Shown here: positions 54,952 to 61,755 of the stretch, piece by piece
Layout: every line of letters starts with the position of its first letter
How positions within the stretch are numbered: the stretch's first letter is position 1
DNA from: Octopus vulgaris
Lineage: Eukaryota
Length of the DNA: 64,000 bases
Reading direction: 5' to 3'
Assembly (NCBI GenBank): GCA_951406725.2
Contig: OX597821.1
Location: forward strand, 113,708,001 to 113,772,000
Program-made: the position numbers and the translations under genes
The notes under the pieces: model-generated
Told to the model about the DNA's origin: nothing
What the model saw: the letters and a program-made list of their open reading frames with translations, nothing else
Databases searched by the model: none

Positions 54952-55178
54952 GTTTCTTTATTGCCCACAAGGGGCTAAACATAGAGGGGACAAACAAGGA
55001 CAGACAAACAGATTAAGTCGATTACATCGACCCCAGTGCGTAACTGGTACTTAATTTATCGACTCCGAAATGATGAAGGCAAGGTCGACCTCGGCGGAAT
55101 TTGAACTCAGAACTGTAACGGCAGACGAAATACGGCTACGCATTTCACCCGGCGTGCTAACGGTTCTGCCAGCTCGCC
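54952..55178 (-). mobile_element. Nin/Deu-domain SINE with 19-bp TSD
   Basis: Core gatgaaggcaaggtcgacctcggcggaatttgaactcagaac; gctcttgtggtaagtatct is duplicated at 54933-54951 and 55179-55197. Confidence 0.88.
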
Positions 55179-55789
55179 GCTCTTGTGGTAAGTATCTTTA
55201 AAACAGCTTCATTGATTACGTGGTCTTGCCAGTATATTATCAGAATCCTTCTCAAACATCTTTGGTGGAAAGCATCTGGCTTCGTTTCGATTTCTACGGT
55301 GCTCTTCCATGTCTCACTGGCATAGAGAACTTTTGGTAGAACAATGAAACTCTAGAGCTGGATCATCGCGTGTAGGCCTATGCTGTTTGAGGGTCAGATG
55401 TATGTACATGTATGTAATTTACGCGATATAATCACACTTGGGTATATGTTTGTTGAAATGCATACAAACTAGTGTGAAATCTGGCAGCTCTTTCTCGAAG
55501 GTCTAACGACCACATCCAGTGTCTCACGTTGGTTTCTGTCTAATGATAAGTCTATTGTTGCAATTCAGCCCCCAAGTCAGCCAAAAGGTTTTCCCGTTGT
55601 GACCGTCCTCTCTTTTAACCAGATACAATGGAAGACGGGAAGGCGTGATTTGAGGGAAAGTCAACCACTATTTCAGGCTGGTCGAGCGACGCATAGTGTC
55701 TTTCATTGGTTCATGTTCTAGGATGTGTTTGCATGCGGTATATCCATCATCTAGATATGCATTCTATAGTGAAATAGCGCAATAAATAA

Positions 55790-56200
55790 ATTCCATCTGA
55801 TCTGTTTGCTCATTAAAAGAGGGATTAGTAAGCGTTCAAGGTTGGAGAAGTAGTTTTGGATGCTAAAAAGAAACTCCTGACTTGGAGTGCATCATTAGAT
55901 TTGTAAGGGTTGTATAAATATCATGTACAGTTAACGGAGACTGTTCAGAACATTCGTAGGAGGTGATAATATGATTTCTGCTGTGTTGATTTGAGAAGCT
56001 TTTTTCTTCTTAGGATTAAGACTAAGCAGGGCATGTATAAAGGAGGACGTACATGCTGGAAGTATTATGGATGTGTATATAAAATGAGGGGGAGATATAA
56101 GCTGGTGTCGTCTGCTGATGTTTAGTTAGTAACAAAAGGAAGACGACAGTTGATCGATAAGAGACAAACTGCAGAAGTAATGATTAAGGTTGATACGACG
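55790..56200 (-). pseudogene. Very old LINE RT remnant
   Basis: Minus-strand SADDTSLY (near 56115) followed by LSLNPKK (near 56020). Confidence 0.35.
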
Positions 56201-57664
56201 AAAGTGAGGGTAAAAAGAATCGTGAATATTCATTTTGCAATAGAGCGACAATTAGAATCTTCCGTATTGCTACAAAGTTCCCTTGAATAATATTTTTGAT
56301 TATTGGTATTCTTATGTTTTGTTGGCAAATGTTATAACTTTTCGCCGTAATGTTCAAAGGTAACAGACCAATATCAACATAAGATGAAAGCTATCTAATG
56401 GGCCTGTCTCTTCAGAAACTCGACTGCTTGTCTCTGAGGAGGGAAATGTATTGAAGATGAGATAAGAAACTCGACCGTTGTTTATCTTATATCAGATCAA
56501 TCCAAGCAGTCGAAGTTATTCATACCAAACGAATGACTCCGAGTTTCTGCCTATCGATCATATATCTTTTAAAGGTTGTTAGCACAACGACAATCCTGAT
56601 CGAAGAGACCCATCATCAAACACATTCTAGCCGCGACCATCCTATCTTTTTAAGAATATCTAAAAATCCTTTAGTTAATGTGTAGTTCCTTACTCAAACT
56701 AGCGGAGTTTAAAGAAGCAGATTTAGTCGCTACATCTAGCAAGCTGAGCGACTTCGTAAAGGCTCTTCGTAAGCAAGTTCACTTTAGTTTCTGTAGTCCC
56801 ATGCTGTGTTTGGTAGAAGCTGATTTACATAAAATTTGGTAAAATGTATGATATACAGGGGACTTATTTCGAAGAAGTTTCTGTGCGAATATTACGATGG
56901 CTGTAGTTTACATAGAATTAGTGGAGGTCTGATTAACTAACTAAGTTATATTACAATTTAGGACACAGGGTGTTTGTTGCTATTGTTAACTGTAGACATC
57001 TGAAGCCACCGAGACATGAGCTCAGATAAATATTCACAATGCAGAATGGTAATCAACCATATACTAAAGACCGAGCGAGTCTGGGGCAGAAAACACATTA
57101 AAACAATTAGAAAATGCATATATCAGTTAAAGTAACTAAAAGTCTCTGACACTGATGAGATTAAACAAGAGAAAGATGATATTTCTACAAATAAATCCTA
57201 TTTTTACTTCTCTTTTATGAAATGATGTTACTAAATGTCGTTCTGTCCTAGTATTTGTTCTAATTTCCACCATATTAGGCGGTTAATAGGCGGTTCTAAT
57301 TTCCACCATATTAGGCGGTTGAAATGTATCTCTTACTTCGAATACAATGTTAGTTTATTACAAGCTTTATTCATGAGAATACTGAACACCTCGAGCTAAT
57401 ATATGCTTCTAACATAGGAACAAGGGCTGAGATTTTGAGGGAAGGCAGTTAGTAGATTAAACCAACCCCAGGATTTACCTACGGCTTATTTTATTGACCC
57501 AGGAGGGAAAACAACAAAATGAACAACGACAGGATTCGAACACAGAGCGCAGCAAGCTGCAATGAATATAACAAAGCACCGTATCACATGTTGTAACCAC
57601 ACTTCATCAGGTGTCTTGAGGGAAAATTCAGACCTGGGTTCTCATTACAAAGGTATTTTTTCGA

Positions 57665-57710
<46 letters not shown>

Positions 57711-57746
57711 GTAATTATTATTATCATTATCATTATTCAGGTCACT

Positions 57747-57818
57747 GGGCATATAGCGTAGTGGTAAGAGCGCGGGTTACTAACCCCAAGATTGCGAGTT
57801 CGATTCCAGGCAGTGACC
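57747..57818 (+). other. tRNA-like Pol III head of a retroposon (not a functional tRNA)
   Basis: A box tagcgtagtgg and B box gagttcgattcc; the acceptor and anticodon stems are imperfect. Confidence 0.65.
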
Positions 57819-57876
57819 TGAATAATAATAATAATAATAATAATGATGATGATAAATAATAATGATGATGATGATA

Positions 57877-57917
<41 letters not shown>

Positions 57918-57980
57918 TAGTGATGATAATAACATGGAAAATACCTTAGGAATGAGAACCCAGCTCCGAAATTTCCCCAA

Positions 57981-58026
57981 GATACCTGATGAAGGCTGGA
58001 GGATTTATCAGCCGAAACGTTGTGTC
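57981..58026 (+). ncRNA. Minimal type-I hammerhead ribozyme motif
   Basis: GAUAC-CUGAUGA-A-GGCUG(GAGGAUUUAU)CAGCC-GAAACGUU|GUGUC: 5-bp stems I and II and the palindrome AACGUU. Confidence 0.72.
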
Positions 58027-58279
58027 AACAACAAACAAGATGAGGACAAATATCCGTCGAATGTAAATAATGTAAATAATTTATATTTTACTGCCTTAAC
58101 TCAGAAATTTAAATTCTACATCAGTAACAGTAGTTGATATCATAGCTCATATCTCATTTTAAATGCTGGTAAAATTGTTATCAAAAAGTATTTTCGATAA
58201 TTACTTCCTGATCATAAAACTTAGCAACCATTCGTTTAGAAGCCATTCAAATTAACGTGATATCATTATCTTTCTTCAT

Positions 58280-58676
58280 AAAGGCGGAAAGCTGGCAGAA
58301 ACGTTGGCACGCCGGGCGAAACGCGTAGCCGTAATTCGTCTGTCTTTACGTTTTGAGTTCAAATTCTGCCGAGGTCGGCTTTGCCTTTCATCCTTTCGGG
58401 GTCGATAAATTAAGTACCAGTTACGCACTGGGGTCGATGTAATCGACTTAATACTTATGTCTGTCCTTGTTTGTCCCCTCTGTGTGTAGCCCCTTGTGGG
58501 TAGTAAAGAAATAGGTATTTCGTCTGTCATTATGTTCTGAGTTCCAATTCCGCCGAGGTCGACTTTGCCTTTCATCCTTTCGGGGTCGACAAATTAAGTA
58601 ACAGCTACGTACTGGGGTCGATCTAATCGACTGGTGAGTCCCCTTCCCCAAAATTTTCGGCCTAGAGTAGAAAAGA
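58280..58676 (+). mobile_element. Dimeric Nin/Deu-domain SINE with TSD
   Basis: Same two-core layout as 28852-29254, flanked by attatctttctt on both sides. Confidence 0.82.
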
Positions 58677-59051
58677 TTATCTTTCTTTATATGACACGCA
58701 AGAAAACATGGAGCATTAATACGTAATATATTCAAAATGGCATTAAATAAAAAAAAAAGCCTTCACAATCAACCACGAGAAAACATGCGCAGGAATATAC
58801 ATATATTGAACATAAATTAATATAGATGTTTGTAACCGTGTAAATTGAATGTATACGAGACCATGTGTGAAAAGCTGTGTATATGTATGTAGGGATGATC
58901 ATGAAACTTTGTTGATATTAAAACTGGACCTCAATTATAGGGGGCAGTGTCTGTCAACCGTTTCACAGTAACTAAAAGGGGTGATAACCTTGCTTTAGTA
59001 ATACCTGCACAAATAATTAACTCGACAAATAAAGAATTGCTATAATTTCTA

Positions 59052-59106
<55 letters not shown>

Positions 59107-59267
59107 GTAATAATAATAATAATAACAACAACAATAACAACAACACCACAACAATAATAATAACAACAACAACAATATCTTTCAATACACTAAAGATAAA
59201 AACATAAAAAAACCAAGGAACATAGAGCTTTGACTGTCAGTGAAAGCACGAAATAAAAATAAGACTA

Positions 59268-59707
<440 letters not shown>

Positions 59708-60087
59708 ATTCGTAAAATTCATCATTATTTGATTCATGTAAAAGTACAAAAATATCACAGAAACATCATTAAAATTAAGACTGAACAATCAGAACGCGTT
59801 TGCATCAAAGCTGCCAGAGCAACTGTAAGTATTTTCGTTGTTAGGGTACAAACCACAAAATCTGGAAAGGTACTTTTCACTGATGAGGTAAATTGTTGAT
59901 TTATAAATTCTTCCTAATCATTTTCTCATCTACTTTTCAAATTGTACATTGTTATCTTCTTTTGCATTATTTACATTATTTACATTTGACGGATATTTGT
60001 CCTCAACTTGTTTGTCGCTAACACAACGTTTCGGCTGATATACCGTCATCACGCGTCTTGGGGAAATTTCGAACCTGGGTTCCCCAA

Positions 60088-60133
60088 GATACCTGATGAA
60101 AGCTGGAGGGTATATCAGCCGAAACGTTGTGTT
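60088..60133 (+). ncRNA. Second copy of the 57981 hammerhead motif (one stem II mismatch)
   Basis: GAUAC-CUGAUGA-A-AGCUG...CAGCC-GAAACGUU|GUGUU. Confidence 0.6.
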
Positions 60134-61755
60134 AGAAACAAACAAGATGGGGACAAATATCCGTCAAATGTAAATAATGTAAATAATATACATAATTCCT
60201 CATCTCTTAAATACAGAACTGTATTATCTTCAATTAGTTTTTTTCTTTTTTTTATCAGAATCATCATAGCTATTCTTATCTTAATTAGGTTCGAAAATTT
60301 AATAATTTATAGCAAAGTTTAATTAATAAATAAATAAATTAATTAATCTATTTTAGCTGAGATTTCATCATGTACTTTTTCTCACTTGTATTTTTTAATT
60401 GTGTGAAATGTTACTTTGCAACGTTTTAATTTCTTTTTCATAAATATTAGAATCTAAAAGCGCTGATAGACAATAAATGATAAGCTTTAACTATATCAAT
60501 CATGAGTAGTAAATTTATAACGGAATTATTGAAGCTTCAACTGGAAAGATACCGTTGATGTTTTGTTAACCATCAGTATTCAGAATTAAGAACATATATT
60601 CGCCTCCCACCTTCTAGTATTAAAAAATCGCTACTTTTTCTTATCAAGTTATAGATTTGCTGTTTACCAATCAAGGTTTCACGATTTGGTACCGGTTTAT
60701 AGCGACGCTCTTTAAATGCATCTCCTTGCAACACGCTTCCGATTGAAATCAGTACTACTCCGCTTTGATTTTTTTTTCAGCTTGAACAAAAGGTATGAAC
60801 GTCCTGCAATCAATGGGAGGGGAAGGGGATGTTGTGAAGTTCATGCCTTTCCTAAAGGCATTATTTACATAGGTAAGTGAAACCACACCGTGACCTCGTC
60901 TCATCGGATGCTTACTGATAAACATCATTTGTTGCCCACAAAGAAACGCTGTATTACAACATTGTAACAGAATGAAGAAGCTTTAAGAAATATATAGAAA
61001 GGAATAAAGATTTCATTAAAAGAGACGTAAATGGACGAACAAAACTTAAGGATCATTTTTATACATCTGAAAGTATTGAATTAACATCATAAATTGACAT
61101 TGGAAACTCAGATAGATTTCAAAAAGTAGGAGTGTTTCACGCCAGAAGGAAAAGGGTAAAACAAGATCCTTTACTATTAACAAACACCTCATGGTATGTA
61201 TTACTAAATTATGTATAAGGTAAGGGGATTGGAACAAACGTCAGGGCGTAGGAAAAAATATCTTGCAGTATTTGTTCCGAGCCTTTAAGTTCTGAGTTCA
61301 AATCTCACCGAGGTCAGCTCTTTCATTTTCCCCACTCCGGGCCTATTAAATACTTGTTAAGTATCGAGGTGGACATCATCAGTTAACCCTACCCACATTG
61401 GGTAATTGCCTGCCCAAATTATAAACAATGAATCTTTTTTACTCTAGGAACAAGGCCCGAAATTTTTGGGGAGGGGGCCAGTCGATTAAATTGACCTCAG
61501 TACGCAACTGGTACTTAATTTATCGACCCCGAAATGATGAAAGGCAAAGTCGACCTCGGCGGAATTTGAACTCAAAACGTAAAGACAGACGAAATAATTA
61601 TAAAGAATTAATAAAACGATATATCATCAAGTAATTAAAATTCCCTGAACATGCCACTCTCTTATACAACACACACTCACACACTCACGCACACATATGT
61701 AAGTATACATACATAAATACTTCACATACATAACTATATACATGTATGTGTGTGC

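Follow-up and report, generated by a model that had tools for sequence, protein, structure and literature searches.

A SINE-like repeat of Octopus vulgaris as the terminal repeat of a Penelope/Poseidon-type retroelement with a tRNA-derived, putative RNA polymerase III promoter

Penelope-like retroelements of the Poseidon type are the closest described relatives of the repeat presented here. In the accessible sections of the literature on PAc and Poseidon of Anolis carolinensis (PMC11167929, PMC8557442, PMC4209133), these elements have one open reading frame (ORF) in which a reverse transcriptase (RT) is joined to a C-terminal GIY-YIG domain. They lack the linker zinc finger of the Neptune type, their minimal hammerhead overlaps the start of the ORF, two 3' ends define a tail of about 30 nt, and inverted 5'-truncated arms are found among their copies. 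The same traits are found for a repeat located at 57602-58080 of a 64,000-nt stretch of the Octopus vulgaris genome (assembly GCA_951406725.2, contig OX597821.1, positions 113,708,001 to 113,772,000 of the forward strand), hereafter the window, in whose coordinates all positions are given. We propose, with a probability of about 0.7 for the model as a whole, that this locus is a two-armed insertion of the pseudo-long terminal repeat (pLTR) of an autonomous Penelope/Poseidon element with an internal tRNA-derived RNA polymerase III (Pol III) promoter. The octopus element differs from the described ones by a tRNA-derived head with A and B boxes and an AAT spacer within its pLTR, by a strong accumulation of 5' ends at this head, and by the absence of runs of four T (T4), the Pol III terminator.

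Pol III promoters derived from small RNAs and located within a terminal repeat are known from TRIMp3 elements (Cassandra and Ajax with 5S, Helenus with tRNA sequence), where the promoter was probably gained by one insertion or template switch according to the available sections of PMC10886601. TRIMp3 elements are short non-autonomous LTR elements with a primer binding site and a polypurine tract, whereas here the promoter lies in the Penelope pLTR of a coding element; the autonomous partners are expected, in the same sections, to rely on Pol II and to have no such promoter region in common with them. The schistosome Sm-alpha and Sj-alpha repeats, as far as the accessible text of PMC6765202 and PMC2770079 goes, also place a tRNA-related Pol III promoter before a hammerhead, so that the combination of head and hammerhead is not new. 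However, Sm-alpha is presented as tandem, non-coding and released by cleavage, and no autonomous parent with the same head is described in these portions of the two papers. Metazoan non-LTR retrozymes share the type I hammerhead and the link to Penelope-like elements, but in the available part of PMC7761336 they occur in tandem, are devoid of a promoter and have the cut site as their border, and the octopus unit has none of these traits. Moreover, minimal hammerheads that are dispersed or lie on opposite strands were already read as truncated Penelope-like elements (PMC4209133, sections available). The tRNA-derived SINEs (short interspersed nuclear elements; SINE2) have in common with the octopus unit a tRNA head, a short length, a very high copy number and 5' ends at the head. 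The octopus unit differs from them since it has neither a 3' tail derived from a long interspersed nuclear element (LINE) nor a terminal A or simple repeat, its full end being unique sequence, and since it shows a Penelope-type insertion structure and a head that is part of an autonomous element and not an independent lineage. Ohshima and Okada reportedly described three octopus tRNA retroposons in 1994; the short pLTR unit may be one of these families (OK, OR1 and OR2).

All parts of the locus that were listed in a preliminary description, made from the letters of the window alone, were found in place. The tRNA-derived head of the pLTR occupies 57747-57820 (+), and the first base of the arm to which it belongs is precisely tRNA position +1. 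Its A box (57754-57764, +) and B box (57796-57807, +) match the consensus and have a tRNA-like spacing, from which a promoter of type 2 for Pol III is predicted; the B-box pair G53-C61 is kept across 169 heads, CpG decay excepted. An (AAT)n spacer of variable length (57821-57932, +), into which other retroelements often insert, leads to the start of the Penelope/Poseidon ORF (57952-58080, +), whose 43 open codons run through the hammerhead. This minimal type I hammerhead (57981-58026, +) has five of five pairs in stem I, the core CTGATGA (57986-57992), one bulged A, a stem II of 6 bp, the palindrome AACGTT in stem III and a GUU triplet, with a predicted cut after 58021. The TGTAAATAA repeats at 58062-58079 (+), 9 nt long and in frame, also exist as announced, but they do not mark the true 3' end of the family: they are the shorter, tail-less of two 3' ends, as indicated by a bimodal distribution, and the second end lies about 30 nt beyond. 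A T4 occurs at 58086, just beyond the end of the window copy. On the other side, 57602-57747 (-) is an inverted arm composed of the last 10 nt of the head, the AAT spacer and that portion of the tail which precedes hammerhead stem II and just reaches it. It is 85-88% identical to 57811-57994 and has one base in common with head +1. The window copy shows the tail-less arm and a partner arm devoid of its 3' part, an atypical state that probably reflects a loss after insertion; the absent end has no match elsewhere in the window.

It is close to certain that this unit is the pLTR of an autonomous Penelope/Poseidon-type retroelement, because the head follows a GIY-YIG end, the tail is the start of the ORF and the RT groups with Poseidon-type relatives. 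Among 30 loci selected on the hammerhead, three share sequence upstream of the head, and that of one locus (L138) translates as a GIY-YIG C-terminus. A search with this upstream DNA yielded 29 other loci; the head lies at most 36 nt from the matched GIY-YIG end in 24 of them, in two it has an internal deletion and the tail comes after it, and in three the head was not directly shown. In ORF-linked copies, the stop codon is located 29 nt upstream of head +1. The order of the element is thus RT-GIY-YIG ORF, 29-nt untranslated region (UTR), tRNA head, (AAT)n, ORF start with hammerhead, and tail of about 30 nt. A near-complete copy of 2,629 nt (L262), obtained through a search with RT-region DNA, shows the order tail, ORF, UTR, head, tail, and in another copy (L280) the hammerhead tail continues directly into the N-terminus of the ORF. 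In the window, the frame that opens at ATG 57952 crosses the entire hammerhead and the 9-nt repeats, and 11 of 20 residues are identical to the N-terminus of a related full ORF (P0002, pairwise E 6e-5). The tail segment, previously regarded as non-coding, is coding in origin. Likewise, what had been taken for a free-standing chimeric SINE is a head within the 3' UTR/pLTR of an autonomous element followed by the start of its ORF. The suggestion of a Penelope machinery was right.

The RT domain of this ORF (PF00078, E 1.6e-9) is 54-61% identical to four proteins and 42% identical to the Anolis protein P0043, which is probably PAc of Anolis carolinensis. Its last 219 aa can be aligned with the GIY-YIG end of P0043 (E 1e-23), although Pfam gave no family for that piece. 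A CxxCxxC-type motif, as in the linker zinc finger of the Neptune type, was absent from L283 and present in the Neptune-type locus L091. In an RT tree that included no named Repbase references, the family and 19 homologues were separated from both Neptune ORFs of the same genome (100/100). All ORF copies seen are broken. A partial tandem pLTR-ORF-pLTR arrangement may exist: tail-to-ORF junctions were observed in L262 and L280, while none of the copies retrieved had an entire pLTR upstream. A young Neptune-type family with a 781-aa ORF, obtained by a GIY-YIG search, was considered as a partner and rejected, as its 3' end is different and it shares neither head nor tail; the true parent was absent among the loci examined in that search. 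That family (L091-L106, e.g. G000:C16:20834000-20841500) has many intact 781-aa ORFs (in 16 of the 16 loci fetched for that length). A hammerhead-like motif is present in its pLTR, and the core of this motif is of the U3/A8 type, a variant that the accessible part of PMC4209133 reports for schistosomes.

Head and tail are linked in the 2.8-Gb genome. Sixty head-selected loci were fetched and three were set aside (that of the window and two duplicates); the head is followed by the tail in 45 of the 57 counted, as the preliminary description had anticipated. In the 12 unlinked loci, the AAT spacer is mostly interrupted by other insertions. No alternative common tail was found among the 57 loci, and control loci contained no tail match in 340 kb. 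When 32 letters of the hammerhead were sought as an exact pattern, the genome gave 2,652 matches and the reversed control none, and the motif pattern occurs twice in the window vs 0.02 times expected by chance. About 36,000 hammerhead copies can be estimated, an order of magnitude that rests on 4 of 54 and makes tens of thousands probable. The head itself is a degenerate tRNA-like sequence, since ARAGORN called no tRNA in the window and none of the heads as a tRNA in 58 head loci. Rfam (E<=1) reported neither a hammerhead nor a tRNA family in 55000-61000; on another copy (L249) its tRNA model matched 8-63 with 15.6 bits, below the gathering threshold. When the head was compared with sampled tRNAs of the genome, with isotypes in part, the top three local scores were those of tRNA-Arg, and Cys and Thr followed at a short distance. 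No match was obtained with a pattern for a tRNA-Arg(ACG) parent.

The insertions bear the signature of Penelope-like elements. Copies are mostly dispersed single or inverted insertions; direct partial tandems are few and head-to-tail multimers are not typical. A survey of 111 non-duplicate loci comprised 63 with diverging arms, 8 with other inversions and 40 with a single arm. The 3' ends of the tail are bimodal, about 30 nt apart, and the tail of about 30 nt is present on exactly one arm in 58 of the 63 diverging pairs (on neither in 4, on both in 1), while 31 would be expected (p 7e-13). A flanking duplication of at least 7 nt, mostly 9-15, was found in 34 of 54 one-tail pairs vs 3.4 in shuffles. 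These features match the inverted arm and one-sided tail of 30-40 bp described for Penelope-like elements in the available sections of PMC8557442. They also match the two internal RT start sites of the Anolis element in vitro; the ORF of that element begins within the hammerhead and its protein requires ORF RNA beyond the start sites (PMC11167929, accessible part). In line with these counts, the inverted truncated arm of the window had been correctly regarded as a Penelope signature. A second, headless copy in the window (59966-60223), to which the other occurrence of the hammerhead pattern belongs, consists of back-to-back arms, 59966-60082 (-) and 60080-60223 (+), with the tail on the + arm alone and an 8-bp flanking duplication (59952-59959 and 60224-60231). 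Such two-arm, one-tail, duplication-flanked insertions are numerous natural cases on which the model of two-site initiation can be tested.

The evidence for the promoter comes from the 5' ends. Break points were counted in 88 head-bearing segments from 90 loci chosen on the hammerhead alone, both arms of mirror pairs being included, so that the events are not all independent. Thirty segments start inside the head, 50 at 0 to -7, two in the UTR, three in the ORF and three beyond the reference. Thus, 58 of the 88 segments reach head +1, and 50 of these 58 stop 0-7 nt before the tRNA start. The break rate is 0.14 per nt at 0 to -7 vs 0.008 in the head and 0.004 upstream (18-38-fold). Mirror-type junctions account for 21 of the 50, and after their removal 29 of 37 segments still stop at 0 to -7. 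Moreover, exact 20-mers of the head start were counted 3,429 times in the genome vs 947 for the UTR just upstream, and about three quarters of the heads are devoid of the upstream UTR (rough estimates 10,700 vs 2,600). Pol III starts 7-14 nt upstream of the A box, and the stop window falls there; the simplest reading is therefore a run-off at the 5' end of an RNA. The short copies are thus likely to owe their RNA to a functional Pol III promoter, and the Pol III promoter put forward in the preliminary description appears probable.

In the model we favor, Pol III would start about 0-7 nt before the head in tandem master loci (pLTR then ORF) and, meeting no T4, would run into the ORF. The RT/endonuclease of the element would nick both strands of AT-rich DNA, and reverse transcription would begin at two internal sites of the ORF start, by comparison with Anolis in vitro (PMC11167929, accessible part). 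Copying to the 5' end of the RNA would generate SINE-like arms of about 270 nt, and the two cDNA ends would be joined via microhomology. The protein would probably come from Pol II read-through. Being without ORF sequence past the start sites, the short copies are probably dead-end by-products.

The sense strand of L262 contains no T4 in 2,629 nt, where 3.5 would be expected (P 0.018), along with 25 runs of three T, and no T4 site is common to more than 4 of 34-67 overlapping copies. In 80 related loci from other organisms, the median is 3.0 T4 per kb (observed/expected 459/461); the Neptune ORFs of the octopus genome have 3.6-4.2 per kb, but two short controls have, like L262, low counts. This depletion is suggestive of terminator avoidance. 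It might even be that the whole 2.6-kb genomic RNA of the autonomous element is made by Pol III, with an ORF purged of terminators and the SINE-like family as a by-product, an extension that we regard as possible but less likely than not; if true, the parent element would be harbouring a nascent SINE. No A/B- or B-box pattern was found at the place of the head in 14 control loci with a downstream hammerhead. Three Poseidon-type loci (L324, L331 and L332) also have fewer T4 runs than expected (1 vs 4.8; 3-4 vs 8). In two metagenome loci, a tRNA-like A/B-box stretch (L316, near 2517) and a tRNA gene (L374, near 2438) lie upstream of truncated Poseidon-type ORFs, outside the 3' UTR.

Several observations weigh against our model. 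The UTR/head border lies within a hairpin of -9.5 kcal/mol, which may itself cause stops, and the sharp edge at -7 is partly set by a palindrome of UTR and head. Three RNA-seq runs, apparently unstranded and random-primed and possibly from a relative, revealed no pile-up of starts or ends, and 75-81% of mapped reads continue into unlike flanks; in the three raw runs and one contig set, both strands are equal and depth follows the copy structure. The T4 test was post hoc and concerns a single family, with a copy coverage of just 2-11 over the first 450 nt. Three of the 80 control loci (1.0-1.6 kb) are also free of T4, and among the 13 control loci longer than 2 kb the lowest (2.3 kb) has one. 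The need for downstream ORF RNA, on which the fate of the short copies depends, is borrowed from the Anolis element. Finally, none of 118 scored candidates has an intact full ORF or represents an intact pLTR-ORF-pLTR master; given this and a distance of copies of 5-8% from the column majority, the family looks inactive at present. In ORF-linked copies (e.g. L148; in the window, the equivalent lies just 5' of 57747), the piece of UTR that immediately precedes the head resembles the inverted start of the head. The hairpin may be a relic of the mirror junction through which the element acquired its tRNA segment.

Part of these data could be explained if the head were a passive tRNA relic and the copies ordinary 5'-truncated Penelope ends, their starts being due to stalling at the hairpin, cDNA fold-back or an internal Pol II promoter. 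The position of the hairpin over the site, the mirror-type junctions, several more junctions with short fold-backs and the lack of a start in RNA-seq would be in agreement with this, and Drosophila Penelope has a TATA-less internal promoter (PMC2377424, sections available). However, hairpins of -9.1 kcal/mol (anticodon arm) and -8.1 kcal/mol (hammerhead stem II) have no comparable pile-up, 29 of the 50 junctions are not of the mirror type, the boxes match the consensus with the spacing of a tRNA, the stop window is where Pol III would start, and the absence of T4 would be left unexplained. This makes a passive head unlikely. The excess of heads without UTR, together with A and B boxes kept in each short copy and the T4 past the window copy, might rather suggest that the short unit propagates itself as a SINE, with dispersed copies that Pol III transcribes and that the Penelope protein copies again in trans, as first supposed. 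Short copies also look slightly less diverged, although they were chosen for intact motifs. Yet the head belongs to the autonomous element, and 47 ORF-linked units do not differ from 122 short ones in the frequencies of the non-CpG variants at head 64, tail 58 and tail 127 (p 0.37-0.80), so that no separate SINE lineage shows. CpG sites alone differ between the two classes, which sampling can explain. Both classes of 3' ends are at fixed places, as fits templates extending past them, and the requirement of the Anolis protein for ORF RNA past the start sites (PMC11167929, accessible part) also argues against such a SINE, which we consider improbable.

The preliminary description had also proposed processing by self-cleavage, in a SINE/retrozyme hybrid. 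In a cycle of this type, similar to that of retrozymes or Sm-alpha, the hammerhead would cut multimeric transcripts into monomers or circles before reverse transcription. The hammerhead has all its parts and belongs to a kind for which action as a dimer has been proposed (PMC4209133, sections available), two copies can pair through the palindrome in a cofold, and a few direct partial tandems exist. The fold is real, since in 13 motifs from other Poseidon-type loci the core is the same and the stems differ with pairing kept. Nevertheless, among 265 tail segments a single one begins at the predicted cut and 6 start within 8 nt vs about 4 expected, without local excess; many loci were selected for an intact hammerhead, and this test rests on partner arms. 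The units begin at the head instead. For the Anolis element, cleavage was not required and no reads ended at the cut (PMC11167929, accessible part). Such a cycle is thus very improbable here, and the hammerhead is probably dispensable for copying.

The favored model, a pLTR with its own tRNA-derived promoter, bears on the transcription of Penelope-like elements and on the role of their hammerheads. The genome records the start of the template RNA thousands of times, and the recorded starts suggest a Pol III promoter of the tRNA type and not the site cut by the ribozyme. If true, this would run counter to the idea that Pol II is required by the autonomous partners (PMC10886601, available sections), and the octopus element would be the Penelope counterpart of TRIMp3. 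It would also show how SINE-like families can arise when the promoter is captured by the parent element and not by a parasite. We found no description of a tRNA-derived promoter in an autonomous Penelope-like pLTR in full text, the scope of this search ending before Repbase, Dfam and SINEBase, most subscription papers, and supplements. The accessible parts of PMC7761336, PMC13282606, PMC5786205, PMC6685494, PMC3747384 and PMC2377424 do not describe it either, and the supplements of PMC13282606 and PMC8557442 may list this octopus family. In practice, a large family of repeats for which annotation as a SINE is likely consists of a Penelope pLTR.

Other repeats and genes were encountered in the course of this analysis. 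tRNA-Cys genes and their variants are densely clustered within 3 kb in L396 (G000:C12:25267077-25270148), and other loci contain many tRNA-Lys(TTT) and tRNA-Thr variants. A LINE of a type that we take, from its C-terminal motif, to be Dong/R4 was considered as the mobilising partner in four loci (L119, L126, L133 and L136) and rejected, as the LINE ends are secondary insertions into the AAT microsatellite. At least two such families have inserted in the (AAT)n spacer and in other AAT arrays (these four loci, L052, L060, L190 and L198), and the short 3' end of one of them is found at 59232-59273 of the window, before a long AAT array. Another abundant SINE-like repeat, present in many loci, occupies 58291-58660 and presumably resembles Deu/Nin-domain SINEs. 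Two direct repeats of 118 nt (58331-58448 and 58515-58632, 90% alike) are part of it, and an older fragment with 70% identity lies upstream of the inverted arm, at 57420-57511.
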